Below are positions 19,177 to 37,627 of a stretch of 64,000 bases of DNA, piece after piece (positions within the stretch are counted from its first letter, which is position 1; every line of letters starts with the position of its first letter). Origin of the DNA: Candidatus Latescibacterota bacterium (lineage in GTDB: Bacteria; Latescibacterota; UBA2968; GCA-2709665); NCBI GenBank assembly GCA_965248435.1, contig OZ252100.1, forward strand, positions 1,920,001-1,984,000. The letters run 5' to 3'. A program made the translations under genes and the position numbers. The notes below the pieces were generated by a model. That model was not told the origin of the DNA. It searched no databases and saw nothing but the letters and a program-made list of their open reading frames with translations.

Positions 19177-22176
19177 TTGACTGAGTCTCCCAATCTTCAA
19201 AACCTGATACTTGATCTCGAGCGGTTCTGGGCCTCCAAGGGCTGTCTTATCTGGCAGCCCTACAGCGAAAAATTGGGGGCCGGCACGATGAACCCCGCCA
19301 CTTTTCTGAGGGTGATTGGACCTGAGCCCTGGTCCGTGGCCTACGTCGAACCCTCCTTCCGTCCAGACGACGGACGATTCGCGGAAAATCCAAACCGGAT
19401 GCAGATGTTTCTCCAATACCAGGTCATTCTGAAGCCTGACCCGGGTAACCCCCTGGAGCTCTACCTGAAAAGCCTGGAGGCCGTGGGTATCGACACCAGC
19501 CGCCACGATATCCGATTCGTTGAGGACAACTGGGAGTCCCCAGTACTTGGGGCGTGGGGTCTGGGATGGGAGGTCTGGCTCGACGGGATGGAAATCACCC
19601 AATTCACCTACTTCCAGCAAGCCGGTGGCATGGCACTCGACCCGGTCGCCGTAGAGATCACCTACGGCCTGGAGCGAATCGCGATGTATCGGCAGGAGGT
19701 CCGCGACGTCTGGGAACTCAGGTGGAACGACCGGGTGACCTACGGAGAGATGCTCAAACAGCAGGAGATAGAATACTGTCACTACGCCTTCAACACAGCC
19801 AGCGTGGAACGCCTCCAGAGTATGTATTCCCTCTTTGCCGAGGAGGCCAGGGAAGCGTTGGGTCGAGGTCAGATCTTGCCCGCCTACGACTATGTGGTGC
19901 GCTGTTCGCACGCCTTTAACCTGCTCGATACCCGAGGCGCAGTCGGCGTGACCGAACGCGCACGCTTCTTCGGAGAGATGCGGGAGCTCGCCCGCCAGGC
20001 GGCGGAAATGTTCGGCGAGCAGCGGAAGGAGAAAGAGTTCCCCCTGCTTTGCAAGAAACCCGACGCCGAAAAGGCCAAATCGCGGAGCGAAGATCTTCCC
20101 GATCTGGATGCCGCCGACCTTCTTCTGGAAATCGGCTCTGAAGAACTCCCGGCCTTTGACGTTCGCAGCGGCACAGACCAGCTTAGAACCCTTTTGGCCC
20201 GGCGCTTAGATGAGGAACGACTGGCATACGAGAAGATACAGATCGGGGGTACGCCGAGAAGGCTCTCGGCACTCGTCACCGGTTTGGCCGGCCGACAGCC
20301 GGACGAGGAACGCTGGGTGAGGGGACCCACCGTCAACGTTGCGTATGATGAATCGGGTGCGCCTACGCGCGCACTGGAAGGCTTCTGCCGTGGTCAGGGC
20401 GTCCGACCGGAAGAGGTCGAGAGACGCAAAGACGAAAAGGGAGTGGAATGCGTCTACGCTCTGCGGAAGGGCGAGGGTCGCAGAACACAAGAGATCCTAT
20501 CCACCCTTCTGCCCGAGCTCATCGGTGACCTCAAGTTTGGCAAGACGATGCGTTGGGATTCGGACGGCGTCTCCTACCCGAGGCCGATTCGATGGCTTGT
20601 GGCGCTTTTTGGAAGCCAGGTCATCCCGATCACCTACGCTCGCGCGGACGCCGGTCGAGCGAGTTTCGGCCTTCGAAGTGAAGGCACACCCGCAATCGAA
20701 TTCAGATCTGCAGATGAATACCAGTCCGTGACCGAGAAACAGGGTATCCTGGTCGACCGTGACCTCCGTCGAAGAAAAATCCAAGCGCAGGTGCGTAGGC
20801 TCGCTGAGGAAGTCGGTGGTGTTGTCGCTGAGGATCCAGACCTCCTCGAGGAGGTCACCGACCTGGTCGAGGCGCCGTTCGGGCTAAGGGGGAGCTTCGA
20901 CGCGTCCCACCTCGAACTCCCTCAAGAAGTTCTGACTACGGTCATGTCCAAACATCAGCGGTACTTTCCGATCCTCGATTCAAAAACGAGTCGGCTCCTG
21001 CCTCACTTCATCACGATCGCCAACGGCCGTTCGATCGACCCGGAAACCGTCCTGCGCGGAAACGAGGGCGTGATTCGGGCACGCTACGCCGACGCGGCGT
21101 TTTTCTACCGTGAGGATAGTCGCAAACCCCTGGAGGACTACCTTCCGAGCCTGGATGCGCTCACCTTCCAGGAAAATCTGGGATCGGTACTCGATAAGAC
21201 ACACCGCGTCGAAAAACTCGTGCCCGCCTTGTCATCCGATCTGGGCCTCGCGGAAAAGGAACAGGAGATGGCCCTGCGCGCTGCCAGGCTCTGCAAGGCC
21301 GATCTGGCCACCAGCATGGTGATCGAACTCACCTCTCTTCAGGGCGTTATGGGACGCTATTACGCCCTGGCCTCGGGCGAGCCGGAACCGGTCGCCGAAG
21401 CCATACAAGGCCACTACCACCCGCGCTTTCCCGGGGATGTGCTTCCCTCCTCACTTCCCGGGTTTGCGCTGTCCGTGGCCGACCGTCTCGACAGCCTCGC
21501 CGGGCTCTTCTCCGTTGGCATAAAGCCCAGGGCGACCGCCGATCCTTACGGACTCAGGCGAGACGCGCTCGGGTTGCTGGCTAACCTGATCGGACACCGC
21601 TGCCGCTTTTCCCTCAAAAAGGGTCTCGAGGCCGCGGCTGATCTGCTTCCGGTAGAGAAGGATCGGGATCGGCTCCAGGATGCCCTCGATTTTATCCTCA
21701 GACGGCTCGCCGTTCAGTTGCGAGACGAGGGGTTCAAGCACGACGTCGTCGAAGCGACGATTGAAGGCGGCTGTGACGATCCGTTCGAACTTCGACAGAT
21801 TGTCGAAGGCCTCACGAAAATGGTCGAGTCCGAGGACTGGCTGGAGACGCTCCACGCCTACTCCCGCTGCAAACGGATCGTGAAAGATCTGCCTGAGCAA
21901 CTCGATCTGGATCCAAGCGCCGACAAGGAAGAGGCAACACAGAACCTGGGGAAGGCTTTTCACTCCGCAAAGGAGCGAATGGATCGCGCAGAGGACCGAA
22001 TCGAGACACTCGGTCAAATCCTTGAAGACCTTCGAAATCCGATCAACACCTTCTTCGACGACGTCCTCGTGATGTCCGAGGACGAAACCCTTCGCAACGC
22101 ACGCCTCGCCCTCGTCCAGCGCATCGCTGCCCTGCCTGACGGTACTGCCGACCTGAGCCTTTTGGAAGGCTTTTAA
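19177..22176 (+). CDS. glyQS: Glycine--tRNA ligase, fused alpha+beta subunits
   Basis: Alpha motifs [26 protein letters not shown] and ITYGLER continue in one ORF into beta motifs [19 protein letters not shown] and DPYGLRR. Confidence 0.97.
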
Positions 22177-22230
22177 GCGCTTCTTCTCGAAGGACAACGT
22201 CCGATCGCCTCACGCCATCTCCCAAACGAA

Positions 22231-24297
22231 TTGGAAACTCAGGACTCAATATTGGACCTCAGGGAGAATCTTTCATCCTGGTGCCTCTATGCAGTCCTCC
22301 TGGGCATACTCACCTTCGCCGCATTCGGCAATCTATCCACCCATCTGTTTCATACCCACGACCAGGAATATCTGCAGGACGCCGCTGTTTCTCAGGGAGA
22401 CTTCTGGTTCTTCGTTTCGCCAGAGAGGATCTATCCAGGGAGGCCTACCTTCAACCTCTATCTCTGGGCCGCTTACAAATTCTTCAAGGAAGACCCCGCC
22501 GGTTATCACCAGCTTCAAGTCTGGCTCCACTTTCTGGCCAGCCTGCTCGTCGCCTTTACTTTCAGAAGGCTAGGGGCAACTTTCGAGCTGAGCCTTATCG
22601 GTGGTCTCCTATTTCTGATGAATGTGGCCCACTTCGACCCCGTGCACTGGATTTCAGCAACCCATTACATCTTGGCACTCATCTTCGGGTTAGTCGCAGT
22701 GCTGCTATACTCCCGGTGCCTGGAAACAAGCCGCTACCGTTGGTCCTTTGCCGCAGCCTCAGCACTGGCAGTGGCCATATTCGCGCATGCCTCCACATCG
22801 GCAGTAACCTTGTTCTTCCTGATTTTGACTTTGTACAAGAAACAGCCGCGATTGAAAGCGATCTATATGCTGCTTCCCCAATTCACTGTCGCAGGGCTAT
22901 GCGGTATGGTCCTCATCCTTGTCTATCCCAAAGAACCCCAGATGAGTGTAGTTCTCAATGTCTCTCAACCTGTGGATGTCATTCGTAACCTGTTCTGGTT
23001 TTCTGGAAGGCTAGTCACAACCGCTCATTGGCTTCCGGAATCTTTGGATCTGGCGGAATACACGGCCTGGGAACTCGCAATCGGATTCATTCTCCTGTCT
23101 CTGTCTATTTTCCTTTCAATGCGTAACCGCGGTTTACTATTGCTTTGGACGGCATGGTTGATCGCATTGACTTTGCCATTCATAAGTATAGAGATAAGGC
23201 CAAATTTAACTGGACCATCCAGATATATCTATCTCTCTTCTCTGGGTTCTTCATTCATTCTTGGCTGGATAGTTCACACGCTTGTATGTTGGGTAGGGAA
23301 GCGATGGATCAACCTCACGCGACCCCTCTTTCTAGGCTGTCTAGGAGTATTGGTAGGGACAAGTTTGCTGGGACTACGAAGAGCCGAAGCCATTTCACTA
23401 GAAATTTCGGCCGGAACCTATATATATAAAAGAAAGCAAATTGAAGTAGGCCTTCAGCTGCTGAAGCGTGCAATCGCTCGAAATCCACGCGTCTTGCCTG
23501 CTGATGCATATTTTACACTCGCAGCGAATAGCTTTTTCATTGGAAAATCCACTGAGCCAATCCTGCAAAAGGCTCTCCGAGAAGATCCTGCATCTCCGGA
23601 ACTCAACATGCTTCTTGGAGTCTCCGCCTTCCTTCACGATGATCCTCAGATTCGCCTAGCCGGAGATAAGAGAGTTGAGGAAGCGCTAAACGCATCTGAT
23701 CAGGACATATTGCTTATTACTAAAACTGGGGTCGCCTATAACAATCTGGGAGGATTCTTTTATGGTACAGGAGATATGGCCACCGCGGCAAAACTGTTTA
23801 TGCGAGCTATTCAGCATGATCCAGGGCATATTTCCTCCACATTGAACCTGGGGAGGGCACTTTACAAAAGTGGCGAAAAGCAGAAGGCGGCTACGATCTT
23901 CAAGCGTCTTTTGGAGCTTCCGCTATCTGACGACTTCATCATACAATGGATGGGAAGGGTAAGCGACATTTTGGCCGAGCAGGACTACGGACAGGAAGCG
24001 ATCGATTCCTACAAGAAAGTTATCTCAGTTAATCCACAGGACACGCTCTCTCACTATAATCTAGCCATTACGTTAGAAAAAGTAGACAGATTGGAGGAGG
24101 CTGTTGAGACTTACGAGACATACTTACAGTTTCAACCCAAGGATTTGAACGCCCTTCTTGGCCTTGCTCGTTCCTACGCTGAAATAGGTCGGAGCGAAAA
24201 AGCGATCGAAGAGTATCGGCGAACTCTGTCTATCAGTCCAGACAACCAGGAAGCCAGATCCAGACTCGAGGCGTTACTGGAGCGCAAACGACAATGA
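22231..24297 (+). CDS. GT-C-like multi-TM plus C-terminal TPR protein (TMTC-like), paralogue 1
   Basis: About 10 hydrophobic segments, first-loop HDQEY, GRP, PAGYH, VHWIS and SRYIYLSS, then TPRs (AYNNLGG, SHYNLAI). Confidence 0.7.
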   Translation: METQDSILDLRENLSSWCLYAVLLGILTFAAFGNLSTHLFHTHDQEYLQDAAVSQGDFWFFVSPERIYPGRPTFNLYLWAAYKFFKEDPAGYHQLQVWLHFLASLLVAFTFRRLGATFELSLIGGLLFLMNVAHFDPVHWISATHYILALIFGLVAVLLYSRCLETSRYRWSFAAASALAVAIFAHASTSAVTLFFLILTLYKKQPRLKAIYMLLPQFTVAGLCGMVLILVYPKEPQMSVVLNVSQPVDVIRNLFWFSGRLVTTAHWLPESLDLAEYTAWELAIGFILLSLSIFLSMRNRGLLLLWTAWLIALTLPFISIEIRPNLTGPSRYIYLSSLGSSFILGWIVHTLVCWVGKRWINLTRPLFLGCLGVLVGTSLLGLRRAEAISLEISAGTYIYKRKQIEVGLQLLKRAIARNPRVLPADAYFTLAANSFFIGKSTEPILQKALREDPASPELNMLLGVSAFLHDDPQIRLAGDKRVEEALNASDQDILLITKTGVAYNNLGGFFYGTGDMATAAKLFMRAIQHDPGHISSTLNLGRALYKSGEKQKAATIFKRLLELPLSDDFIIQWMGRVSDILAEQDYGQEAIDSYKKVISVNPQDTLSHYNLAITLEKVDRLEEAVETYETYLQFQPKDLNALLGLARSYAEIGRSEKAIEEYRRTLSISPDNQEARSRLEALLERKRQ
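22275..22565 (+). repeat. Near-identical 291-nt direct repeat, copy A (paralogue 1)
   Basis: Matches 26442-26732 with about 7 mismatches by eye. Confidence 0.9.
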
Positions 24298-24304
24298 TAT
24301 GTAG

Positions 24305-26368
24305 GTGGAGAACGTGACGATCCAAGGCTCAATACTCGGCCTCCGAGAGAATATTTCAACTTGGTGTATCTATTCACTCCTGATGGGGCTGCTCACCTTT
24401 GCTGCATTCGGAAATCTCTCTACCCATCTGTTTTCAACGCACGACCAGGAATTTCTGCGGGACGCTGCTGCTTCGCAGGGGCCCTTTTCCTTTATTGTTT
24501 CGCCAGAAAGGAGCTATCCACACCTGTATCTCTGGGCCGCCTACAAACTCTTTAGGCAAGATCCCGCCGGTTACCATCACCTTCAGGTCTGGCTCCACTT
24601 TCTGGCCAGCCTGCTCGTTGCGCTTACTTTCAGGAGACTTGGCGCAACCTTTGAGCTGAGCCTCGTCGGCGGCCTCCTGTTTCTGATGAATGTGGCCCAC
24701 TTCGACGCCGTTCACTGGATATCTGCAACGCATTACATCTTTGCACTCATCTTCGGGTTAGTCGCGGTGCTGCTATACTTCCGGTGCCTGGAAACAAGCC
24801 ACTACCGCTGGTCCTTTGCCGCAGCCTCGGCCCTGGCAGTGGCCATGTTCGCGCATGCCTCCACAGGGGCTGTCACATTATTCTTTCTGATTTTGAGTTT
24901 GCAGAAGAAGCTGCCGCGATTGAAGGCGATCTATATGCTACTTCCCCAATTCGCTGTAGCAGGGCTATGCGGTGTGGTACTAAACCTTGTCTTTGCCAAA
25001 GAACACCAGATGAGTACAGTTCCCATTGTCTCTCAACCTGTGGATGTCATTCGTAACCTGTTCTGGTTCTCTGGAAGGCTGGTCACAACCGCTCATTGGT
25101 TTCCGGAGTTCTTGGCTCTGGCCGAACACACCAACTGGGAACTCGCAATCGGATTCATCTTCCTGGCTCTGTCTATTTTTCTTTCTATACGTAATCGGGG
25201 TTCGTTATTGCTTTGGACGGTCTGGTTGATCTCATTGACGTTGCCATTCATGAAACTAGGGGCAATGCCACATATTACTGGGCCATCCAGATATGTCTAT
25301 CTCTCTTCCCTTGGTTCTTCATTCATTCTCGCATGGACAGTTCATACGTTTGTCGGTTGGGTGGGGAAGCGGCAGCACGACCTCGCGAGACCCCTTTTAC
25401 TAGGCTGTGTAGGAATACTGCTGGTGTTTAGTCTACTGGGGTTACAAAGAACCGAAGCCATCTCACTACATCTTTCGTCTGGAATCTATATATACAAAAA
25501 AAACCAGCCTGAAATAGGCCTGCAACTTTCGAGGCGTGCAATCGCTCGTAATCCACGTGTTTTGCCTGCTGATGCATATTTTAGACTCGCAACGGGTAGC
25601 TTTGCCACCGGAAAATCCATTGAGCGCATCCTCAGAAAGGCTCTCGAAGAAGACCCTGCGTCTCCGGATCTCAACATGCTTCTGGGCGTTTCTGCCTTCC
25701 TGTCTAAGGATCCTCAGGTTCGACACGCGGGTGAAAAAAGGGTCGAGGAGGCACTAAATGCCTCTAGGGATAGCAAGTCCCTCCGTTTGAATACTGCAGT
25801 AGCATTCAACAATCTTGCAGCATTCTATCTTAACGCAAAAGACTATCACCGTGGGATAGAAATCTACAAGAAAGCCCTGAGCTATGACCCTACAAGCCCG
25901 AAGGCGCTCTTCAACCTAGGGAATGCTTTTTACCACATTGGTGAACCACAAAAAGCGATCGAAATCCTTAAGAATCTCCTAAAAGCTCAGCCTCCAGACG
26001 GCATCGCCTGGATGTCAGCGAGAAACCTGAGCACCATTCTAGTTGAGCAGGGATTGGACGAGGAAGCGATTCCTTTCTACACGCGGGCCATCGATGCAAA
26101 TCCTCAAGACAGTCTTTCTCATCATTCCCTCGCAATCGCACTAAAACAAACGGGTAGATTCGAGGAGGCTGTTCAGGCCTACAAAACCTACTTGATGTTT
26201 CAACCCGACAACTGGCAAGCTCGATTGAGTCTAGCTCAGGCCTACGAGAACCTCGGAAGGATTGAGGAGGCTATCGCTGAATATCGAGATGCGCTTACCC
26301 TAGGGCCCGACAATGGTGAAGCCAGAGCAAATTTAGAAACCCTCCTAGAGTTTAAAAACGCCAAGTAG
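24305..26368 (+). CDS. GT-C-like plus TPR protein, paralogue 2
   Basis: Same architecture. 5-aa in-frame deletion in the PERIYPGRPTFN loop. Confidence 0.7.
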   Translation: MENVTIQGSILGLRENISTWCIYSLLMGLLTFAAFGNLSTHLFSTHDQEFLRDAAASQGPFSFIVSPERSYPHLYLWAAYKLFRQDPAGYHHLQVWLHFLASLLVALTFRRLGATFELSLVGGLLFLMNVAHFDAVHWISATHYIFALIFGLVAVLLYFRCLETSHYRWSFAAASALAVAMFAHASTGAVTLFFLILSLQKKLPRLKAIYMLLPQFAVAGLCGVVLNLVFAKEHQMSTVPIVSQPVDVIRNLFWFSGRLVTTAHWFPEFLALAEHTNWELAIGFIFLALSIFLSIRNRGSLLLWTVWLISLTLPFMKLGAMPHITGPSRYVYLSSLGSSFILAWTVHTFVGWVGKRQHDLARPLLLGCVGILLVFSLLGLQRTEAISLHLSSGIYIYKKNQPEIGLQLSRRAIARNPRVLPADAYFRLATGSFATGKSIERILRKALEEDPASPDLNMLLGVSAFLSKDPQVRHAGEKRVEEALNASRDSKSLRLNTAVAFNNLAAFYLNAKDYHRGIEIYKKALSYDPTSPKALFNLGNAFYHIGEPQKAIEILKNLLKAQPPDGIAWMSARNLSTILVEQGLDEEAIPFYTRAIDANPQDSLSHHSLAIALKQTGRFEEAVQAYKTYLMFQPDNWQARLSLAQAYENLGRIEEAIAEYRDALTLGPDNGEARANLETLLEFKNAK

Positions 26369-26397
26369 AAATGAATCTTCCCTAGGTCCAAGAGAAC

Positions 26398-28446
26398 GTG
26401 ATTTCCCAACACGACGTGTTTGCGATCCGCGAGACTGCTTTATCCTGGTGCCTCTATGTGGTCCTCCTGGGCATACTCACCTTCGCCACGTTCGGCAATC
26501 TATCCACCCATCTGTTTCATACCCACGACCAGGAATATCTGCAGGACGCCGCTGTTTCTCAGGGAGACTTCTGGTTCGTCGTTTCGCCAGAGAGGATCTA
26601 TCCAGGGAGGCCTACCTTCAACCTCTATCTCTGGGCCGCTTACAAATTCTTCAAGGAAGACCCCGCCGGTTATCATCACCTTCAAGTCTGGCTCCACTTT
26701 CTGGCCAGCCTGCTCGTCGCCTTTACTTTCAGGAGACTTGGTGCGAATTTCGAGCTGAGCCTTATCGGTGGTCTCCTCTTTCTAATGAACGTGGCGCACT
26801 TCCGCGCGGTTCACTGGATATCTGCGACGAGCTACGTCCTGGCACTCATCCTCGGCCTCGGGACGGTCCTGCTCTTCTTCCGCCGATTGGAGACGGGTCG
26901 CCGTGAGTGGACGCCGGCTGCCGCGCTCGTGTTGGCGGCCGCAATATGCGCCCACCCCTCGGCTGCGATTGTTGCCCTGCTGTGCCTGTTTCTGGCTCTA
27001 CAAAGAAGGCTGGCGATATGGCGTGCTGCCTATGCGTGCCTTCCTCTCTTCGCCGCCACGTTCATTTCCGGAGTTGTGCTGACGGTCGTCTATTCGGGCG
27101 CCCCTCAGGTCGAGGCGACCCTCCGAGCCCCTGAACTCCTGGCTGTCATCCGCAACCTGCTCTGGATGGGAGGAAGGCTCTTCACGAACGCTTTTTGGCT
27201 CCCCGAATTCGTTCTCCTCGAAGAGTACACCTATTGGGAACTGGCAGCAGGTTTTCTTGTTCTATCTGGTTCTCTATTCCTGGCTGTCCGTAATGGCTCC
27301 TCGCTCTTGTTTTGGACAGTCTGGTCAGTTGCGTTTATTCTGCCATTCATCACATCTCAAATCCTCGGCAACGCGTCTGGACCATCTCGATATCTTTATC
27401 TCTCGTCCGTAGGCGCCTGCTTCATTTTCGCCTGGGCAATTCAGACGCTGACAATTCGTGCAAAGAGGAGAAGCAAGAACGCGTCACGGGTGCTTCTCGC
27501 AGGCATTGTGTCAATCATACTGGTTTCCAGTTTCTTTGGACTGGGTAAAACCGAGGCTGTCTCTCTTTATCATTCCGGAAGGACCTATTTTGCCCGAGAA
27601 GACAAGCAGCTTGCGTTAACGCAGTTTGAAAGGGCGATTACACAAGCTCCTGCCGTTTTACCATCTGACGCATACACACGCCTGGCGCACACCGCCTTTA
27701 CTCTGGGAAAATCTGTCGAGCCTATTCTTCGGACTGCCCTGGCAAGAGACCCTGAATCTCGCGAGCTCAATATGCTTCTAGGTGTCTCCGCCTACCTTAG
27801 CGACGACCCTCAGAATCGTGAGGCCGGTGACAAAAGGGTTCAGGAAGCGCTACAGTCCTCACAGGATCACGAGCTTGGCCACGATACGGCGGTGGCATTT
27901 AGTAATCTGGCGGCGTTTTATGTAGAGACGACAGATTATCAAACAGCAATCCATCTATGTAACAGGGCTTTGGATTATCGCTCCCATCATCCTCCGGCTC
28001 TTCTTAATTTGGGGAGTGCGCTATACCAAATTGAGGAAACGGACAAAGCCCTGAAGATCTTCCAAATGCTACTGAGGGTTCAACCTGACAACTGGAAAGC
28101 CACGGTGGGCTTGGCTCGGTCATATCAGAGGCTGGGCAAAGTCGACGAAGCGGTCATCGCATTCCGACGTGTTCTATCTCTGAATCCGAGTTTTCCGGAG
28201 GCCCATTTTGACCTGGGTGCTCACCACTTTAATCGCGGAGAATTTAGCGAAGCAGCCGAAAACTTTCGGGAAACTCTACAGCTCTCGCCTGATTTTTTGC
28301 CTGCCCGTCTGGCCCTGGCTCGGTCTTACGCCAGGATAGGCCAATATCACCTGGCCATTCAGGAGTATCGACACGCGCTGTCTCTCCATCCTGACAACGA
28401 CGAAGCCAGGTCACGTCTCAAGAGCTTGCTGGAGCTCAAACGCTAA
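26398..28446 (+). CDS. GT-C-like plus TPR protein, paralogue 3
   Basis: Same architecture: HDQEY, GRP, SRYLYLSS and TPRs. Confidence 0.7.
   Translation: MISQHDVFAIRETALSWCLYVVLLGILTFATFGNLSTHLFHTHDQEYLQDAAVSQGDFWFVVSPERIYPGRPTFNLYLWAAYKFFKEDPAGYHHLQVWLHFLASLLVAFTFRRLGANFELSLIGGLLFLMNVAHFRAVHWISATSYVLALILGLGTVLLFFRRLETGRREWTPAAALVLAAAICAHPSAAIVALLCLFLALQRRLAIWRAAYACLPLFAATFISGVVLTVVYSGAPQVEATLRAPELLAVIRNLLWMGGRLFTNAFWLPEFVLLEEYTYWELAAGFLVLSGSLFLAVRNGSSLLFWTVWSVAFILPFITSQILGNASGPSRYLYLSSVGACFIFAWAIQTLTIRAKRRSKNASRVLLAGIVSIILVSSFFGLGKTEAVSLYHSGRTYFAREDKQLALTQFERAITQAPAVLPSDAYTRLAHTAFTLGKSVEPILRTALARDPESRELNMLLGVSAYLSDDPQNREAGDKRVQEALQSSQDHELGHDTAVAFSNLAAFYVETTDYQTAIHLCNRALDYRSHHPPALLNLGSALYQIEETDKALKIFQMLLRVQPDNWKATVGLARSYQRLGKVDEAVIAFRRVLSLNPSFPEAHFDLGAHHFNRGEFSEAAENFRETLQLSPDFLPARLALARSYARIGQYHLAIQEYRHALSLHPDNDEARSRLKSLLELKR
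26442..26732 (+). repeat. Near-identical 291-nt direct repeat, copy B (paralogue 3)
   Basis: Matches 22275-22565. Confidence 0.9.
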
Positions 28447-28523
28447 GTGAATTGCGTTGAGTCTACCCGAAACGATTCTGCGTATTTTGATCCTCAAACC
28501 GTTGTCGTGAGATCCTATGGAAT

Positions 28524-30988
28524 ATGACCAACCAAGGCTCAATACTCGGCCTCCGAGAGAATGTTTCATCCTGGTGCCTCTATGCAGTCCTCATGGGGCT
28601 GCTCACCTATGCCTCTTTCGGAGACCTCTCCACGCACCTGCTGTTCAGCCACGACGCTGAATATCTGCAGGACGCTGCAGTTTCTCAGGATGACTTTTCC
28701 TTCGTCGTCTCACCGGAGAGGATCTATCCGGGCAGGCCCACCTTCAACCTCTACCTTTGGGCCGCTTACAGGCTCTTCGAGAACGTCCCCGCCGGCTACC
28801 ATCTGCTCCAGGCCTGGATCCACGCCATCGCGAGTCTGCTCGCCGCTTTTACGTTCAGGAGACTAGGCGCAAGCCTCGAGATCTGCCTGGCTGCAGGCCT
28901 CCTGTTCTTGATGAACGTGGCCCACTTCAGAGCCATTCACTGGATATCGTGCTCGAGTTACATCCTGGCCCTCATTCTGGGTCTTTGCGCTGTCCTGCTC
29001 TTTTGGGAAGGGCTGGAGAGGGGTCGTCGCGGCTGGATCCTAGGGTCCAGTCTTCTGCTGGCGGCAGCCGTCTTCGCCCACGCCTCGACGGTTGCGATCC
29101 CACTGTTCTGCTTCTTTCTGGCGGTGCGCAGAACGTCGTCGATTCAGAAAGCAATCTACATCGCCCTTCCCCAACTGGCCACCGTGGCGGTGTGCAGCAT
29201 TGTGGTCTTGGCCGCATACCCAAACACGTTTCAGGCCGCAGCCATCGTAAGAGCGCCTCAGCCTTTCGACATGGTCCGCAACCTGATCTGGTTCTGGAGC
29301 AGGCTTGCTTCGACCGCCCATTGGCTCCCCGGCTTCCTGGACCTGGAAGGCGTGACCCATTGGGAACTGGGCGCTGGATTTCTGTTCTTGATCGGTTCTC
29401 TCTATCTGTCAGTGCGCAGAGGCCCAGACCCTTGCCTCTTGACCTGGACGGTCTGGTCGATCCTGTTTTGTCTTCCATTCATAAATTCTGCGAGTCTGAC
29501 GGGAAACATACCCGGGCCATCACGGTATCTCTATTTCGCGTCCCTGGGTACTTCCTTCATTCTGGCCTGGATCCTTCATGCAATCGTGTTTCGATTGCTG
29601 AATCTTTCTCGAGCGGGAGAACGTGCTGCTTTCCTAGGCGTCCTGAGTCTGATCGTCGTTCTCAGTCATTTCGGTCTCGCAAGGGCAGAGGCAATTTCCC
29701 TTTACCACGCAGGCCGAAGATATATTGCCCGGGGAGACCATGCCCCAGGCGTCAACCAGCTGAAGGCGGCGATTGCTCGAAGCACGAATATACTACCCAT
29801 CGACGTCTATAGTCGGCTTGCAATGAGTTCATTCGTCCTGGGCAAATCTTCTGAATCGATACTTCGCAGTGCTTTATTGAAGCATCCCGATTTACACGAA
29901 CTCAACATGCTCCTGGGAATGTCCGAGTTGTTGCACAGCGACCCTCAAGTTCGAGAGGCCGGTGAAAGGCAAGTTCGAGACGCGGTAGAAAGCTCTGTCG
30001 ATAAGGAATTGCTTCGCTGGTACGCCGCTATCGCCTACAACAATCTTGCGACATTCTACTCCGGATCAGGCCATAAACGGACTGCGATAGAACTCTACTT
30101 CAACGCCATTAGGTCTTATCCAGACTATCCGACTGCAATTTGTAACCTGGGAAGGGTTCTCTACGACAGCGGCGACAGAAAAAGGGCCGCAGACGTCGTC
30201 CATTCTCTATTGCAGCTGCAGTTGCCTGATGGATTCATAATGCGACGTGGCTCGGAGACTTCATGTCCTCGGAAGGTCGAAAAGAAGATGCAGCAGCATT
30301 CTACAAACTGTCCGCCAGCGTGAGCCCCGAAGATGGCTCGGCACATCATACCCTGGCGATCACGCTGGCCGAACTGGAAAGATTCGAAGAGGCGATTGAA
30401 GCCTACCATTCATGTCTGAGGTATCAACCCGACAACCTTAAAGCCCGTCTTGGCCTGGCGGCGTCCTACGAGAGGCTCAACAGGATTGGCGAGTTGATTG
30501 CGACCTACCGACACGCTGCATCGCTGAAACAGGACAGTTCATCCTTTCATAATCTGGCTATCACGTTAAAGCAGTCTGGCAGATTGAAGGAGGCTATCCA
30601 AGCCTACAACGCATACTTAAAGTTCCAACCCGACAACTGGAGGGCCCAACTCAGCCTGGCTCAGGCCCATGAAAGTCTGGATGAGATCGATGAAGCTATT
30701 TTGGCATATCAAAAGGGTTTGTCACTGAATCCCCATTTTGTGGAGGCTCACTTCAATCTAGGGGTGCACTACTTCAAACGCGGGGAATTCGACGAAGCTG
30801 CCGAAAGCTTTAGCCAGGCTGTCCGGCTCTCCCCCGACTTCTTGAATGCTCGCATTGGTCTCGCGCAGTCTTTCGAAAAAATGGGTCAACGTGAAGAAGC
30901 AGTTCGAGAGTATCGAAACGCACTCTTGCTCAATCCGAACGATCGTAAACTGATGGCCAGTCTTCAGGCCCTTTTGGCACACGAATAG
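28524..30988 (+). pseudogene. GT-C-like plus TPR protein, paralogue 4, frameshifted near 30245
   Basis: ORF 28524-30323 loses similarity after DGFIMR. The TPR tail continues in another frame (TWLGDFMSSEG..., ORF 30263-30988). Confidence 0.75.
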
Positions 30989-30993
30989 CGTGG

Positions 30994-32852
30994 ATGATAC
31001 AAAATAGTTCTGGCAAAGCTCCTATACTCGCGATACGCGAGAATATTTTGACCTGGTTCCTGTATGCACTGCTCATGGCGGGACTGACTTTTGTAGCCTT
31101 CGGGAACCTCTCCACACATTTGTTGCACGACAATGATCCGGAGTACCTGGAAGATGCCGCCGTTTCCCAGCGAGACTTTTCCTTTGTTACTTCCCCAGGA
31201 TCTATCCAGGCAGGCCGACCTTTAATCTTTATCTTTGGGTCGCATACAATCTGTTCGGGGACGATCCTGCCGGGTATCATAACCTTCAAGTCTGTCTACA
31301 CCTGGCCGTCAGTCTGCTCCTCGCGTTTACATTCAGGAGGCTCGGATCGAACTTTGAGTTGAGTCTCATTGGGGGCCTCCTCTTCCTGTTGAATGTGGCC
31401 CATTTTCGGGCCGTTCACTGGATCTCCTGTACGAGTTACCTGCTTGCGCTTTTTCTGGGGCTAACGGCGCTTCTTCTCTATTCCCACGGTCTGAGGACGA
31501 GAAACTCCCGCTGGTCCTACGCGGCGGCCGCAGTCCTGGCGGTCGCCATCTTTGCTCACGCCTCAACGGTGGCGATCACGTTGCCCTTGCTGATTTTGAC
31601 TCTGACGGCAAAGCTTCCAAAACTTAAAGTTATCCACATGCTGATTCCCCAATTCGCCATCGCGGGAATCTGTGGAATCCTACTCATCTCTGTCTATCCA
31701 AAAGCGCCCCAGCTCGTAATGGCTTCCAGGGCCTCTCAGCCTGTGGATCTCGTGCTCAATCTGTTCTGGTTCTGGGGAAGACTGATTACGACCGCTCACT
31801 GGCTTCCAGAGTTCCTGGATCTGGCAGAAACCACCGTTTGGGAACGTACGGCGGGATTCTTTTTCTTCGGTCTATCCGCTTTTCTTTCGGTGAGACGCGG
31901 GTTGTCCGTACTTTGGACGGTCTGGCTGATCGCATTTTCGCTTCCGTTTGTTGGCTCAGATTTGTGGCCGAATGTCCCTGGACCGTCTCGATACCTCTAT
32001 CTTTCCTCACTGGCTTCTTCATTCATTCTTGCCTGGATGATCTACGAGCTTGCAAGGTGGTTAGGAAGAAACCGGATCGGACTTGCCAGGGCCGTCCTGG
32101 TGGCGATCGTTGGAGTACTCCTGAGTTCCAGTATTCTGGGACTAAGAAGGGCCGAGGCGGTTTCTCTATATCACTCCGGATGGAATTACATCACAGACCA
32201 GGAGTACGAAACAGGCCTTGGACAACTAAGGCGCGCAATCACGCAGAATTCACGCATTCTGCCCCCTGATGCCTACTTGCGACTCGCGACGAGCGGCTTC
32301 ATCATCGGTAAATCCGCGGAGGGGTTGCTCCAGAAAGCCCTGGAGGATGATCCAACCTCTCCAGAGCTCAGCATGCTTCTGGGGGCCTCCGCCTTTCTCC
32401 ACAAGGACGACATGGGTAGACAAGCCGGCGAAAAGAGAGTTCGGGAGGCGCTTGAATCATCAAAGGACGACAAACTGCTCCGATGGAACACGGCCGTCGC
32501 CTTCAATAATCTTGCAGGATTCTACCTCGAGGCAGCGGATCATCAAACAGCAATCGATCTGTCATACCAGGCCTTCCTCTATAGCCCAAACTATTCCATG
32601 GCCCTTCTCAACATGGGAAACGCGCTGCACAACAACGGCGAACCCGGTGAAGCCATAGAAATCTTCAAGACACTTCTAAAGTTACAGCCCTCGAATGACA
32701 TCGCGTGGAATGCAATGAGAAACCTGGGTCTCATCCTGGCTGAAAAAGGCTTGAAAGAAGAAACCATCTTTTACTACCAACAGGCCGCAGCACTGGATCC
32801 AGACAACGAAGAAGTGAGATCCAACCTGAAAACGCTCTTGGAAGGTAAATAG
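30994..32852 (+). pseudogene. GT-C-like plus TPR protein, paralogue 5, frameshifted near 31198
   Basis: CCA-GGATCTAT against CCAGAGAGGATCTAT in the paralogues (4-nt loss). The shifted frame reads IYPGRPTFNLYLW and runs into ORF 31359-32852. Confidence 0.8.
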
Positions 32853-32856
32853 TCCG

Positions 32857-33585
32857 GTGTATGATAAACGAAAAGCCTCTTACAATTACGACGCTATTCC
32901 GGCCGGGTACTACGATCGCGTATTCAAAACCGGATTCTCGACGAGACGATTCTGGCACCAATTCAAGTTCCAATCCGTCATTGCTGACCTCCCCGAAGAA
33001 GCAAAAACGATACTGGATATCGGGTGCGGCCCCGGTTCATTGACTTCCCTGATACAAGGTCATATCAGGTCTGTCGGAATAGACTGTTCAGCCAGCCAGG
33101 TTGCCTATGCAGAGAGGAATTATGGCTCTGACTCAAGGATATTTCTTGCGGCGGAGGTCCCGAACCTCCCATTTGTAGACGGTTCGTTCGACGTTGTCAC
33201 GATGGTGGAGGTCCTCGAGCACCTTCCGCTGCACGTGGTAGAGGAAACGCTATCCGAAGTCGTACGACTCCTAAAGCCAAATGGGAGTTTCTTGATTACA
33301 ACCCCGAATTACAAAAGCATGTGGCCGCTACTCGAGCGGATCATCCCTGTTCTGGGCGCTCCCAGCTATGATGAACAGCACGTATCCAGGTTCACGCCTC
33401 GCCGGATCGAGATTTTACTCGCATCCCACGGTTTCAGCACGAACAGTCTAAGCTCGATTTTTATTCTCTCGCCTTTCGTATCCTTCCTTTCCTGGAGATT
33501 AGGTGCCCGACTATTCAGCCTGGAACGAAGACTTGCAAAGAAGCTGGGGTCTTTGATTCTCGGGCGATTTTACCTGGCACCCTGA
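32857..33585 (+). CDS. Class I SAM-dependent methyltransferase
   Basis: ILDIGCGPG, LPFVDGSFDVV, EVLEHL and LKPNG..ITTPN. Confidence 0.9.
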   Translation: MYDKRKASYNYDAIPAGYYDRVFKTGFSTRRFWHQFKFQSVIADLPEEAKTILDIGCGPGSLTSLIQGHIRSVGIDCSASQVAYAERNYGSDSRIFLAAEVPNLPFVDGSFDVVTMVEVLEHLPLHVVEETLSEVVRLLKPNGSFLITTPNYKSMWPLLERIIPVLGAPSYDEQHVSRFTPRRIEILLASHGFSTNSLSSIFILSPFVSFLSWRLGARLFSLERRLAKKLGSLILGRFYLAP

Positions 33586-35996
33586 TGCTTAAATATTCAT
33601 CGACATCTAGAATCCGGGTAGCAGCCATCCTCCTGGGCATCATCCTGCTGTCAGGCTGGCTCCGGTTCTCAGGCCTGGACTGGGGAACGGACCCGGACAC
33701 GGGCACATTCCACGCCTTTCACCCCGACGAAGCGACCATCATCCAGAACGCAAAATGGCTCGGCGTCGACCTCCAACAGATCATCGCTTCATACGGAAAG
33801 GCCCCCGTTTACCTCCTCTGGGCGCTTGCCACCTCTGCAGGCTACCTGTTCGACATCGACCCATTCGATCTCGAACAGAACCGGTCCAGACGCTTCGTCC
33901 ACGTTCTCGCGCGAGGAATCTCGGCCGCCCTGGGCACCCTCACCGTATGGATCCTCTTCTCGATCGGGGTTCGTCTGCACGGCGTATGGACCGGTCTCTT
34001 GTCCGCTGCTTTTCTGGGATGCTGTGCGGGACACATCCAGCAGAGCCACTACTACACCGTTGAGGTATCCCTCACGTTCTGGTTGTGCTTGGCCATCCTC
34101 CTCCTGCTGCAGATGCCTTCAAACCGAAAGGCACTCTACCTGGCATTCGGCGTGGTCTGTGGCCTGGCGATCGGCACACGCCTAGTGGGCATCTGGCTCG
34201 GGATCCCCTTTTTGATTACCCACCTGTGGCCACAGAACGGCCGATCGCAGGAGACTTGGCGCACATTGATGACCCCGCAGATTCTCACCTGTGCGGTCTC
34301 CGCGCTCGCAGTCACGCTCGCCTGCGAGCCTTTTCTCATTCTTGACCCAGGCCATTACTTCAGTCACACAGAGCTGACCAGGCTGATGCCGAGCTTGAAG
34401 GTGGCCAAGGGAGAGCAGGTCGTGATCTGGTCCCTTTTCGACTTCTCCACCACCCCCTACCTGTTCTACTTCACTCACCTCTTTCGCTATGCGCTGGGCG
34501 TGCCGCTCGAGATCGTCGCTTTGCTGGGCGTGTTGCTGGCCCTCGCGCGAAGAAGAAGGCATGAGCTCGTGATACTGGGCTGGATAATTCCATACTTCCT
34601 GACCGTTGGCGGCCTGCACACCATGCCCATCCGATATACCACCCCATTGCTGCCGTTCCTGGGCTTGTTGGGCGCCTGGACGTGCGTCGAGGCGTCTTTG
34701 TGGCTGCACCGACGCTGGAGGCTGCTGCCGATAAGTGCCCTGCCGGTCCTATCCGTAGGGCTTCCTGCCCTGGCCCACGGCGCCTCCATCAGTGAGATCT
34801 TTCGCCAGAAAGACAGCCGGATCGCTGCCGCGCATTGGATTCGTGAGCATATCCCCGAAGGGTCCGTCGTCCTGACCGAACGGGGGGGGTTTCAAACCTT
34901 CTGGATGGTGCCTGAGGCGCGCTACCGGAGAAAGGTCGTAGAAGCGAACTACTTTGTTACTGCCGAAAAGTGCGTGCCTTACTGGTCTCAGCTCAATTTC
35001 CTGGAATCCAAACTCCGGGGCGTGGAGTGGCTCGTCCTGATCGAGGAGAACCGGATGCGTCAGTTCCTGGAGGTTCCGGATCGATATCCGATTGCCTACG
35101 GGTTCTATAACAGACTGGCATCCGGGAAGCTGGGGTTCGAAGGCGTAGCCAGCTTTAAGGTCTCCCCAACGATCTTCGGCTGGCGGTTCTCTGAAGCGGG
35201 GGCCGAGCCGACGATCACCGCCTATGATCACCCCCGTGTGTGGGTCTATCGCTCGACCGGTACAGACGTGAAGGCGCTGCTGGCAGATTGGACGAAAAGG
35301 ATGGGGCAGGATGAGCGATTCGCCGACCGCTATATCCGTGCAGGGGTGAAGGCCTATCGAGAAAACGACTGGGAGGCGGCCGCAGCAGAATTTCGTCATA
35401 CGGTGGAACGGCAGCCCGAATTCATGTTGGGGCACCTTCTCCTGCGAGAAGTGTATCTCAAACAGGGAATGGCGGAGGAGGCAGCCAGGGAATGGCAACT
35501 CGCCTCGAAAGATGGGAATGGAATCACGTTTCAGGCTCTCCTCGGACTGGCTCAGGCCGGTCTGGTGGACGAAGGAACTGCCTATCTAGACCAATTCTTG
35601 CGAGTTTCAAAGGGAAAAGGCTCAATAGATTCCCTCAAAATCGCTCAGATTGAATCGACGATTCGATTTGTCCTGGAAACGAAACAGCGTGAGACCGAAA
35701 CAGATTACCTGCGCGACGTCCGGCTGAACCCGGACAACGTAGACCCGATTTTCAATCTGGGTGTTCTATACTATCGTCAAGGAAGATACGAGCAAGCCGC
35801 ATCATATTTCGCGAGGGTAATCGAGTTATCTCCCCATGACCCAGAGGCCCGCTTGGGACTGGCAGGAGCTTACGCCCGTGTGGGCCGAAGAGAAGACGCC
35901 ATCAGGGAATTTCGCGGTGTCCTATCCATCAATCCAGAGGACGCACAGGCAAAGTCAGGTCTGGAGTCCTTGTTGAAACTGGAAAAGAATGAATAA
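33585..35996 (+). CDS. GT39/PMT_2-like GT-C glycosyltransferase with C-terminal TPRs
   Basis: LRFSGLDWG...FHPDE first-loop motif, ARGISA, SHYYTVE, RYTTPLLPF and TPRs (FNLGVLYYRQG). Confidence 0.75.
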   Translation: MLKYSSTSRIRVAAILLGIILLSGWLRFSGLDWGTDPDTGTFHAFHPDEATIIQNAKWLGVDLQQIIASYGKAPVYLLWALATSAGYLFDIDPFDLEQNRSRRFVHVLARGISAALGTLTVWILFSIGVRLHGVWTGLLSAAFLGCCAGHIQQSHYYTVEVSLTFWLCLAILLLLQMPSNRKALYLAFGVVCGLAIGTRLVGIWLGIPFLITHLWPQNGRSQETWRTLMTPQILTCAVSALAVTLACEPFLILDPGHYFSHTELTRLMPSLKVAKGEQVVIWSLFDFSTTPYLFYFTHLFRYALGVPLEIVALLGVLLALARRRRHELVILGWIIPYFLTVGGLHTMPIRYTTPLLPFLGLLGAWTCVEASLWLHRRWRLLPISALPVLSVGLPALAHGASISEIFRQKDSRIAAAHWIREHIPEGSVVLTERGGFQTFWMVPEARYRRKVVEANYFVTAEKCVPYWSQLNFLESKLRGVEWLVLIEENRMRQFLEVPDRYPIAYGFYNRLASGKLGFEGVASFKVSPTIFGWRFSEAGAEPTITAYDHPRVWVYRSTGTDVKALLADWTKRMGQDERFADRYIRAGVKAYRENDWEAAAAEFRHTVERQPEFMLGHLLLREVYLKQGMAEEAAREWQLASKDGNGITFQALLGLAQAGLVDEGTAYLDQFLRVSKGKGSIDSLKIAQIESTIRFVLETKQRETETDYLRDVRLNPDNVDPIFNLGVLYYRQGRYEQAASYFARVIELSPHDPEARLGLAGAYARVGRREDAIREFRGVLSINPEDAQAKSGLESLLKLEKNE

Positions 35997-36049: not shown

Positions 36050-36121
36050 AGTGGATACAGACACTTAAACGATTGCGTCGGGTTTTCATTCGACTCCGCC
36101 ATCTTGCGCGGGCATCCTGAA

Positions 36122-36523
36122 ATGGCCAACGAAACCATCCTCGTCGTAGAAGACAACGTGATGAACATGGAATTGATCACCGACATCCTTGAGGTCAAGG
36201 GATATGAGGTCCTGCAGGCTACGACGGGTTCTGATGCCCTTGATCTTGTCAACTCGAAGCACCCCGACCTGATCTTAATGGACATCCAGCTCCCCGGTTT
36301 GGATGGGCTGACCATAACCGGTATCATCAAGGACAACCCTGATATCCGTGATATACCCATCGTGGCTATCACAGCCCACGCGATGCGTGGCGACGAGGAA
36401 AAGGTTCGCGAGGCCGGATGCGATGGCTACATCTCCAAACCGATCGATACGCGCAAACTCCCGGACACAATTCAGGGCTTCTTAGACAGCCGCCGGCAGG
36501 GCGCTTCCCCAAACGAGGGCTGA
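36122..36523 (+). CDS. Single-domain response regulator (DivK-like)
   Basis: ILVVEDN, LMDIQLPG, TAHAMRGD and GCDGYISKP. Confidence 0.93.
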   Translation: MANETILVVEDNVMNMELITDILEVKGYEVLQATTGSDALDLVNSKHPDLILMDIQLPGLDGLTITGIIKDNPDIRDIPIVAITAHAMRGDEEKVREAGCDGYISKPIDTRKLPDTIQGFLDSRRQGASPNEG

Positions 36524-36526
36524 GGC

Positions 36527-37627
36527 ATGGGCAAATCCACCGTACTCGTAGTAGATGACAACCCCCAGAACCTGGAGCTCCTCGAGGCTTATCTCATCCC
36601 AGAGGACTACAATGTTCTGACTGCTCTTGACGGCCTGGAGGCGCTAAAGCAGGTAGAGGAGGTGTCTCCTGACATCGTCCTTTTGGACGTTATGATGCCC
36701 AACATGAACGGGTATGAGGTCTGTCAGAAACTGAAAAACGATGAAACGACTCGGTTCATTCCCGTCGTAATGGTCACCGCACTGAAGGAGCTGGACGACA
36801 AAATTCAAAGCATCGAGGCAGGCGCAGACGATTTCCTGACGAAGCCGATCAACAAGCTGGAGCTCCTCACCCGAATCAAGTCCCTCATCCGCGTGAAGCA
36901 TCTGCACGATGATCTCGCAAAGAGTTACCGTGACCTCATGGAGCTGGAGAATACGAAAGACCACCTTACTCAAATGATCATACACGACCTCAAAAACCCG
37001 CTTACCGGGATAAAGGCCAATCTCGAGATCGTGGGCATGGAAGAACTCCGAGAGACTCAGGAATGCCTGGACGCCGCTCAGCGCAGCTGCGACCTGCTGT
37101 TCAACATGATCCAGGATCTTTTGGACATCTCGAAGATGGAGGATGGACAGCTCACGCTTAACAAAGAACCGTGCAACTTGGAAGAAATCATCGGTGCCTC
37201 GGCAAAAGAGTTCGAGGTCACGTCGCTCGCCGAAAACAAAGAGATTGTGTTGGAGCTGAGTCCTGATCTGCCACCGCTGAATTGCGACCGCAATCTGCTT
37301 TATCGTACCATGTCCAATCTATTGATCAATGCGATCAAGTATACGGGTCGTGGAGGGACGATAACCGTTCACGCCTTAGTCGTGGAGGGATCGTTTCAGG
37401 TGAGGGTAGAAGATACCGGGCAGGGAATTCCAGACGAATACCTGGAGAAGGTATTCGAGAAATTCGGTCAGGTTGAGAGCAGATCGCGAAGCGGTACGGG
37501 TCTTGGGCTTACCTTTTGCAGGATGGCGGTGGAAGCTCACCAGGGGCGAATCTGGGTGGAGAGCGAAGAGGGTGTAGGCAGCAGATTCATATTTGAGATT
37601 CCCGAAAATCCTTCTTCCGACGCCTGA
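36527..37627 (+). CDS. Hybrid REC-HisKA-HATPase histidine kinase
   Basis: VVDD...LDVMMP, IHDLKNPL, NAIKY, DTGQGI and GTGLGL. Confidence 0.93.
   Translation: MGKSTVLVVDDNPQNLELLEAYLIPEDYNVLTALDGLEALKQVEEVSPDIVLLDVMMPNMNGYEVCQKLKNDETTRFIPVVMVTALKELDDKIQSIEAGADDFLTKPINKLELLTRIKSLIRVKHLHDDLAKSYRDLMELENTKDHLTQMIIHDLKNPLTGIKANLEIVGMEELRETQECLDAAQRSCDLLFNMIQDLLDISKMEDGQLTLNKEPCNLEEIIGASAKEFEVTSLAENKEIVLELSPDLPPLNCDRNLLYRTMSNLLINAIKYTGRGGTITVHALVVEGSFQVRVEDTGQGIPDEYLEKVFEKFGQVESRSRSGTGLGLTFCRMAVEAHQGRIWVESEEGVGSRFIFEIPENPSSDA

Follow-up and report, generated by a model that had tools for sequence, protein, structure and literature searches.

A tandem array of predicted TMTC-like GT-C/TPR membrane proteins in a Latescibacterota genome

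The window analyzed here is a 64,000-nucleotide (nt) stretch of the Candidatus Latescibacterota bacterium assembly GCA_965248435.1 (contig OZ252100.1, positions 1,920,001 to 1,984,000 of the forward strand). It carries a tandem array of five paralogous genes, designated c1 to c5, each encoding an N-terminal multi-helix membrane domain followed by a tail of tetratricopeptide repeats (TPRs). A structure predicted with good confidence gives the membrane domain the GT-C fold, and profile comparison links it to TMTC_DUF1736 proteins, the family (Pfam PF08409, CAZy GT105) of the animal proteins TMTC1-4, which are O-mannosyltransferases of cadherins. We favor, with somewhat better than even expectation, the interpretation that the array encodes periplasm-facing GT-C glycosyltransferases that would take their sugars from polyprenyl phosphate, the TPR tail of each enzyme directing it to its target.

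Together with a methyltransferase gene and a gene for a GT39-like protein that also ends in TPRs, c1 to c5 form a head-to-tail run of consecutive reading units on the plus strand at 22231-35996. Coordinates are positions in the window, and residue numbers in the membrane domain follow c1, of which residues 1-440 were modeled. The initial annotation had given this layout, and the open reading frames (ORFs) bear it out, as do DNA identities of 58-74% over about 2 kb in all 10 pairs of c1 to c5, a degree of paralogy far beyond chance. Of the five copies only three are intact, c4 and c5 being frameshifted. The array genes are:

c1, 22231-24297, plus strand: intact paralogue; ORF of 688 amino acids (aa) with a predicted GT-C membrane domain at about aa 1-385 and a 303-aa TPR tail.
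c2, 24305-26368, plus strand: intact ORF of 687 aa; TPR tail of 302 aa; lacks GRPTFN.
c3, 26398-28446, plus strand: intact paralogue of 682 aa; TPR tail of 297 aa; H266F.
c4, 28524-30988, plus strand: frameshifted paralogue with the longest TPR tail, 437 aa; ORFs 28524-30323 and 30263-30988.
c5, 30994-32852, plus strand: frameshifted paralogue with the shortest TPR tail, 235 aa; ORFs 30994-31362 and 31359-32852.

Pfam TPR matches run from about residue 385 to the end of the array proteins, and the tails differ in length, as had been noted. The membrane domains of c1 and c2 are 78% identical. From c1 to c5 the first-loop motifs read HDQEY, HDQEF, HDQEY, HDAEY, and NDPEY, and PAGYH, V/IHWIS, and SRY.Y are further motifs of the array; all of these had been quoted in the initial annotation and are present, as is FHPDE in the GT39-like protein, but the GRP quoted alongside them is deleted in c2. 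Intergenic gaps along the run measure 7, 29, 77, 5, and 4 nt, followed by a 1-nt overlap (TGATG) between the methyltransferase stop and the GT39 start.

Evidence for the fold comes from an AlphaFold2 model of c1 residues 1-440, which was built from a 28-row alignment and reached a predicted local distance difference test score (pLDDT) of 85.3 and a predicted template modeling score (pTM) of 0.87. When this model was compared by VIA-align with 48,161 representative chains from the Protein Data Bank (PDB), ranks 1 through 20 were all GT-C proteins (Z 10.8-21.4, with 273-361 residues aligned), namely seventeen glycosyltransferases and three instances of chain U of GPI transamidase (Z 12.0-14.1). 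The best match was AglB (Z 21.4, 329 residues aligned, root-mean-square deviation 4.1); further matches were to Pmt1-Pmt2 (Z 20.5), ArnT (19.7), Pmt4 (19.3), STT3B (19.2), and PglB (18.9), with ALG12 (18.0), AftA (17.1), and others ranking lower, down to EmbA-EmbB (10.8). After rank 20 the matches are TPR proteins with Z of 9 or less. Foldseek likewise placed GT-C chains at the top, with TM scores of 0.36-0.54, probabilities of 0.97-1.00, and E-values from 4e-4. The GT-C assignment made by the initial annotation thus gains the support of a good-quality model.

Homology was traced within the genome itself. A six-frame search with the c1 membrane domain recovered the five array copies and two further loci, L007 (E 3e-8) and L008 (E 2.4e-5), which a genome-wide PF08409 search shows to be the genome's only matches to TMTC_DUF1736, at 29.1 and 38.1 bits, respectively:

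L007, G000:C1:180802-184128: TMTC_DUF1736 and TPR protein.
L008, G000:C1:1638992-1642486: TMTC_DUF1736 and TPR protein.

For profile comparison we used profile A2, a membrane-only profile of 33 sequences from the window and from named loci in metagenome-assembled genomes (MAGs), with one TPR at its end. By hhalign, A2 matched L007 with 98% probability (E 2.7e-13, 144 columns, 32% identity) and L008 with 96.8% (E 2.3e-10, 350 columns). The same profile gave 2.6% against the membrane domain of the neighboring GT39-like protein, that is, no detectable sequence homology, and no PMT or PMT_2 Pfam match was found in c1 to c5. NCBIfam models matched the array proteins only as TPR families, apart from one weak Agl23 match (5.1e-5) in c2. 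In the ESM Atlas the nearest clusters consist of hypothetical proteins, and 18-19% of their members carry PMT_2, which serves as a lead only. On this sequence evidence, the array membrane domain is homologous to the TMTC_DUF1736 proteins L007 and L008, and the kinship with TMTCs claimed by the initial annotation stands to that extent.

The model and hydropathy together give 11 membrane helices rather than the approximately 10 first proposed. Across the 33 sequences, lysine plus arginine make up 0.13-0.28 of residues in the five predicted cytoplasmic inter-helix loops vs. 0-0.076 in the predicted periplasmic loops. Given the odd helix number and this charge pattern, loop 1 (HDxEY), loops 4 and 5, and the TPR tail are placed in the periplasm. 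Asp44, Arg331, and the TPR tail are accordingly predicted to lie on the periplasmic side and the N-terminus in the cytoplasm, in agreement with the extracytoplasmic position previously suggested for the conserved Asp.

Conservation was counted in a MAFFT alignment of 161 family rows. Asp44 is found in 143 of these (10 rows have gaps), including all five window copies. Counts out of 161 for other residues are 152 for Arg71, 151 for Arg260, 152 for Arg331, 148 for Glu281, 158 for Tyr334, and 134 for Asn131, and the histidines are similarly prominent: His93 (151/161), His100 (153/161), His134 (156/161), His139 (112/161), His186 (146/161), and His266 (140/161).

Catalytic activity, the donor and acceptor, and what Asp44, Arg331, and the histidines do are inferred along the following lines. 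A GT2 enzyme resembling ArnC or GtrB, encoded elsewhere in the genome, would load a sugar onto polyprenyl phosphate in the cytoplasm, and the lipid-linked sugar would be flipped across the membrane. There the GT-C domain of the array enzyme, in the inner membrane, would pass on this one sugar to an acceptor outside the cytoplasm that the TPR tail holds. The catalytic base, or else the residue that activates the acceptor, would be Asp44 of the first periplasmic loop, and the donor phosphate would be bound by Arg331 of SRYxY in the last one; by analogy, these would be the roles of the loop-1 Asp and last-loop Arg of solved GT-C enzymes. The copies differ mainly in their TPR tails and so probably serve different acceptors. 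As acceptor we give a protein a slight preference over an envelope glycan, on the grounds of the relation to TMTCs and of TPR tails that are long and have diversified. The initial annotation also raised glycan methylation as part of an extracytoplasmic system. No signal peptide or evident export signal was found in the methyltransferase sequence, so any sugar methylation by this enzyme would be confined to the cytoplasmic precursor, the only form within its reach.

A source for the donor can be proposed. Among relatives, two genomes of one genus, G024 (L074, 655-10769) and G027 (L073, 4804-15158), share the gene order GT2 (312 aa), PMT_2, GT9, GT2 (309 aa), epimerase, then two or three copies of the array family, in a cluster that adjoins serS. 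Their GT2 proteins align over full length to ArnC (3.5e-52) and PgfS (2.6e-70). The window's genome contains 10 GT2 matches to the G024 GT2 query, the best 70% identical and 1.47 Mb away, and has in addition a GT2 resembling AglJ and dolichyl-phosphate-hexose transferases beside an epimerase. One ArnC/GtrB-like GT2 of the genome is located at G000:C1:3415382-3416299. Candidate makers of polyprenyl-phosphate sugars are thus encoded in the genome outside the cluster, as the initial annotation anticipated in calling for a genome search for such synthases.

A bolder version of the favored interpretation would make the array family a distinct GT-C family with a histidine-rich active site and, in this candidate phylum, at least 10 copies per genome, a TPR-aimed repertoire of periplasmic protein glycosyltransferases and bacterial counterpart of TMTC1-4, whose arrays would be fast-evolving, strain-specific contingency loci for surface glycosylation, possibly with a methylated sugar. 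Its proposed site would comprise His93, His134, His139, His186, and His266, with Asp44 and Arg331, in place of the Lys/Glu/Asp set of TMTCs. Taken as a whole, this combination seems to us unlikely.

A number of findings weigh against the glycosyltransferase interpretation, the first of them from sequence comparison. Pfam searches with four array membrane domains (the first approximately 420 residues), at E up to 10, returned no relevant match, PF08409 included. A phmmer search of PDB chains found no match, and the family profile matched only TPR chains in the PDB and no glycosyltransferase. The GT-C assignment is one read from a predicted model. The motif comparison is similarly mixed. TMTC motifs M1-M7 are defined by Eisenhaber et al. 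2021 (PMC7801869), and we compared M1-M5 and M7, leaving out M6 (PxxP in TM9). M1 is kept as [H/D]-D-x-E, with Asp44 aligned to the DD of L007 and L008, and the Arg and Tyr of M7 (ERxxY) are kept as SRYxY. Only G-R-P stays of M2 (SHKSYRP), and M3 (RxD), M4 (KET(Q)xxT), and M5 (DW) correspond to NVAHF.AVHWIS, AHAS/T, and AHW in the array family. Thus two of the six compared motifs are retained (M1 and the Arg/Tyr of M7), which qualifies the TMTC kinship, and the replacement of M3, M4, and M5 means that the active site differs from that of TMTCs. The alignment therefore presents the array family as a TMTC-like relative with a differently built, putatively histidine-rich set of conserved loop residues. 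Within the window itself, besides the two broken copies, c2 has an in-frame deletion of six residues that removes GRPTFN, including Arg71, and c3 lacks His266.

Genomic context adds further points on the same side. The array cluster contains no GT2, flippase, or sugar-nucleotide gene. Among 32 array-family loci surveyed in other genomes, clustering of neighbors gave no universal partner, and a GT39-like gene was nearby in two and a methyltransferase in two. The ArnC/PgfS and AglJ-like matches fall below the NCBIfam equivalog cut-offs. The Pfam Cadherin domain PF00028, the mark of one type of surface protein that the initial annotation proposed to look for, was not found in the genome, which is 97.5% complete. 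Finally, the GT9 heptosyltransferase in the clusters of G024 and G027 suggests lipopolysaccharide (LPS) rather than protein acceptors.

This last point belongs to the strongest alternative, which keeps the same chemistry and assigns it an envelope glycan or lipid as acceptor (LPS core, lipid A, capsule, or a peptidoglycan-linked polymer), with the TPRs docking the enzyme to envelope machinery. Family copies in G024 and G027 sit with the GT9 heptosyltransferase, a PMT_2 GT-C protein, and two ArnC-like GT2s, and these clusters point to envelope glycans as readily as to the protein acceptor first claimed; ArnT is also among the best structural matches. The array varies from strain to strain, as expected of loci for surface-glycan modification, of which the serotype-converting gtr loci, known to vary between strains, are an example. 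The closest relatives by sequence, on the other hand, are TMTC_DUF1736/TPR proteins, of which the characterized animal ones have protein substrates; TPR tails of such length and diversity typically serve for protein binding; and no O-antigen or capsule genes surround the array in the window. Three-component systems for glycan modification, consisting of GT2, flippase, and GT-C protein, are described in PMC11127046. We regard a glycan or lipid acceptor as possible, if rather doubtful.

A second alternative retains the GT-C fold without the activity: the proteins would be lipid- or polyprenol-binding scaffolds, or pseudo-enzymes, that anchor periplasmic TPR platforms. PIG-U, the GT-C-fold subunit of GPI transamidase, is non-catalytic and provides the precedent, and chain U of this complex is one of the chains that the model matches in fold. 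Each TMTC residue proposed to bind metal and phosphate (the Lys and Glu of KET, the Asp of DW, the Glu of ER) has given way to another in the array family, and most family loci lack a glycosylation neighbor. However, Asp44, Arg331, Arg71, Arg260, Glu281, and five histidines, placed in periplasmic loops or at the ends of helices, are 87-98% conserved among the 161 sequences, a pattern that fits a catalytic or ligand site better than a scaffold, and ArnC-like GT2 and sugar-nucleotide genes accompany the family in at least three contexts. We consider a purely structural role quite improbable.

One such context is a cassette shared by L016 (2560-7100) and L022 (11022-15568), which come from MAGs labeled as different phyla. 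In both, family copies flank a split transketolase (266 and 306 aa), a 440-aa methyltransferase, and an NAD-dependent sugar epimerase/dehydratase, in what looks like a pathway for a branched or methylated sugar. Of the 32 surveyed loci, seven have two or three tandem family copies, seven have ABC exporters as neighbors, and four have sulfatases. The recurrence of methyltransferases with family copies in the window, L016, and L022, and in the equivalent slot of the related genome G008 described below, is suggestive only. The adjacency of family members to aminoacyl-tRNA synthetase genes (serS or glyQS) may be coincidence.

The remaining alternative turns on the lesions: in this strain the array would be what is left, in decay, of an island gained by horizontal transfer, and would now do little or nothing. 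The c4 frameshift at 30238/30239 is a 7-nt deletion and the c5 frameshift at 31195/31196 a 4-nt deletion relative to a close strain, organism B. Both frameshifts recur in organism A contigs of two sequencing runs (depth 41 and 14), runs that may derive from the source sample and are thus not independent of the window assembly. Sequencing error was considered as their cause and is unlikely, since the lost stretches, of 7 nt and 4 nt, lie between short direct repeats and are missing from the contigs of both runs. The organism B contigs (runs X5 and X7) belong to another study; they leave parts of the array without cover in both runs, and their contig-level reads give no allele frequencies. In organism B, AATGCGC behind 30238 (X5), 7 extra bases, restores the c4 frame, and CAGA behind 31195 (X5 and X7), 4 extra bases, restores the c5 frame; the c4 read-through matches metagenome protein P0019. 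The window's lesions are thus real deletions flanked by short direct repeats, recent and specific to the strain. Organism B has a c4 frameshift of its own, with 2+2 nt missing at 28871/28874, which fits the start of P0019 at MNVAHF. In one of its contigs, moreover, position 31433 is followed directly by 35078 (depth 4.1 in X5, 2 in X7); the 3,644 nt left out comprise the remainder of c5, the methyltransferase gene, and the GT39 gene up to two thirds of its length. The array is now eroding or varying between strains.

The copies nevertheless carry the record of selection. The ratio of nonsynonymous to synonymous substitution rates (dN/dS, Nei-Gojobori) is 0.12-0.32 for every pair with computable dS, c4 and c5 included, with the qualification that dS is saturated for most pairs and that the relatives are not independent samples. 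Purifying selection has acted on the array copies, and for long, which again marks the lesions as recent. Comparison of c1 with c2 gives a dS of 0.45 for the membrane part and of 1.29 for the TPR part, at equal dN/dS (0.26 and 0.28, respectively), and c1 and c3 share a tract of 98% identity near the 5' end of c3; the dS contrast and this tract fit gene conversion of membrane parts over older, diverged tails. In a FastTree phylogeny of 161 membrane domains, c1 to c5 fall in one nine-row clade with support 100, whose other four rows are metagenome proteins P0003, P0006, P0008, and P0019. The array is on this account a lineage-specific expansion, grown by tandem duplication in the window's lineage.

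Decay is therefore a reading with evidence on both sides: the frameshifted c4 and c5, the residues missing from c2 and c3, the different c4 frameshift and 3.6-kb deletion joint of the sister strain, the lack of family members in the only other genome of the genus and in 17 of the 18 genomes searched from the bacterial family, the low GC content at third codon positions (GC3) given below, and an in-frame TAG in the nearby mpl gene speak for it, but three ORFs of about 685 codons are still open, the gene spacing is still operon-like, and the selection just described was long, so that we hold a functionless remnant to be the least probable of the alternatives.

The array family, that is, the relatives of the c1 to c5 membrane domains, extends well beyond the window. 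A word-indexed protein search yielded 30 proteins, including the five of the window, and an exhaustive profile search found 321 cluster representatives (50% identity) at E of 1e-30 or less; lower tiers (6,840 at 1e-10 and 35,398 at 1e-3) were not used, as they are inflated by the TPR of A2 and by canonical TMTC-like proteins. Named loci come from MAGs of Latescibacterota, Gemmatimonadota, Planctomycetota, Eisenbacteria, and Handelsmanbacteria. At 1e-20, 59 of 168 genomes of the window's phylum have a match and several have at least 10, and by bacterial family the counts are 1/21 in the window's own, 12/31 in a second, and 43/76 in a third. The layout is thus not unique, since tandem or multicopy members are common in the phylum. 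Closer to the window, five of 30 related genomes have the family, including one of 18 in the same bacterial family, and it was not found in one other genome of the genus.

By comparison, the gene for the GT39-like protein with TPRs occurs in 23 of the 30 related genomes and in 17 of the 18 of the same bacterial family. The array has apparently come between this gene and an upstream glyQS gene, and the relevant features are:

Fused glyQS (GlyRS alpha and beta), 19177-22176, plus strand: 999 aa; upstream boundary of the variable slot, by Pfam and synteny.
Inserted segment (array and methyltransferase), 22177-33584, no strand assigned: 11,408 nt; lower GC and GC3 than the flanks; synteny.
Class I S-adenosylmethionine (SAM)-dependent methyltransferase, 32857-33585, plus strand: 242 aa; Pfam Methyltransf_11, 73.8 bits, 1.8e-20.
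GT39/PMT-like GT-C protein with periplasmic domain and C-terminal TPRs, 33585-35996, plus strand: 803 aa; PMT and PMT_2 Pfam matches.

The related genome G006 has mpl ... glyQS-GT39-hypothetical, where GT39 comes directly after glyQS. In G008, a genome from the same bacterial family, the slot (L064, G008:C21, 11111-15587, minus strand) holds genes for a 975-aa PMT_2 and TPR protein, a 255-aa methyltransferase that is 25% identical to the window's, and a 256-aa GT2. The inserted segment has a GC content of 0.519 vs. 0.565 elsewhere, and GC3 is 0.52-0.63 in its genes vs. 0.696 in glyQS and 0.690 in the GT39 gene. From the synteny in G006 and G008 and the low GC3 we conclude that the segment with the array and methyltransferase was inserted into a variable slot, one that repeatedly collects GT-C/TPR and sugar-related genes. 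The GT39 gene is a conserved resident of the bacterial family, and the genes of the interval are not one inherited unit, contrary to their initial treatment as a single system. A scan for promoters and terminators gave no convincing boundaries, only one promoter-like site (11/12) upstream of glyQS.

Besides its Methyltransf_11 match, the methyltransferase carries the glycine-rich motif I as LDIGCGPG. The GT39-like protein scores 35.2 bits for PMT (cut-off 22.7) and 32.1 bits for PMT_2 (cut-off 26.1), and its FHPDE, at aa 44-48, is an acidic DE motif that follows the first hydrophobic segment, as positioned by eye. Its last approximately 95 aa (three TPRs, 35700-35996) are 33-40% identical to the C-terminal TPRs of c1 to c4, with a common ending of the form ...A.S.LE.LL..., a likeness that may reflect common origin or domain exchange. 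As for the flanks, a fused glyQS of similar length is the rule among GlyRS relatives in our protein search; the best of the named ones, at 62% identity, are labeled Latescibacteria. Downstream of the cluster, 36104-37627 (plus strand) encodes a stand-alone response regulator and then a receiver-histidine kinase hybrid, and a similar hybrid lies upstream of the array at 12483-13661 (plus strand). The mpl-type Mur ligase gene at 16542-17957 (minus strand) has an in-frame TAG at 17007-17009, with the frame continuing on both sides. This TAG is a nonsense mutation or marks a pseudogene, and is not recoding; an alternative genetic code, considered for it and for a TAG inside a relative's match, was rejected because TAG ends 13 of the window's 44 ORFs.

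If the array proteins are active, they would bring poorly known candidate phyla into the range of TPR-guided glycosylation outside the cytoplasm, and would offer a natural series of paralogues, differing mainly in their TPR tails, suited to the study of acceptor choice. If they are inactive, they would be a bacterial case of the GT-C fold turned to another use. Should a distinct histidine-rich family prove true, it would merit its own CAZy and Pfam entries. Frameshifts that arose independently in two close strains, together with a deletion, show a locus that is evolving quickly, which is of interest for surface variation. Bacteria have numerous GT-C/TPR proteins of TMTC type, but the limited literature searched returned no characterized bacterial TMTC-like enzyme and no paper on this branch.

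Comparison with known systems places the array nearest to animal TMTC1-4. They are alike in architecture, with a GT-C domain of many helices at the N-terminus and then TPRs that face away from the cytoplasm. They also share an acidic residue and RP, both in loop 1, RxxY in the final loop, and paralogue sets that differ in their TPR parts; the homology is traced by way of L007 and L008. The differences are that the array has no PF08409 match even at E of 10, has histidine-containing motifs where TMTCs have M3, M4, and M5, and resides in a genome lacking cadherin domains. The donor would be a polyprenyl-phosphate sugar, not a dolichyl-phosphate sugar, because the host is bacterial. The failure of the PF08409 model and of three of the six compared motifs is our reason for not filing the family as TMTC. 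Full-length prokaryotic TMTC homologues were already noted by Eisenhaber et al. 2021 (PMC7801869), a further reason why the layout is not unique, and PMC8476585 cites a GT-C fold prediction for GT105.

L007 and L008 have the same architecture as the array proteins and similar size (657 and at least 704 aa), but they keep, as judged by eye, FxxDD, YRP, GRSD/E, KE, DY, and ERxLY, which the array family does not, and they are single, dispersed genes in contrast to the tandem array. The PMT (GT39) enzymes share the GT-C fold, as the Pmt1-Pmt2 and Pmt4 matches indicate, and an acidic loop-1 motif, but differ in sequence to the point that neither Pfam nor hhalign, in the comparisons given above, connects them with c1 to c5. 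ArnT (GT83), which works with ArnC, again shares the fold, and an ArnC-like GT2 stands beside the family in G024 and G027; ArnT, however, has no TPR tail and acts on lipid A. From the three-component GT2/flippase/GT-C systems the array cluster differs in having neither of the first two components. Judged from these likenesses and differences in sequence, the array family is a divergent, TMTC-like branch of the GT-C proteins that Pfam does not recognize.

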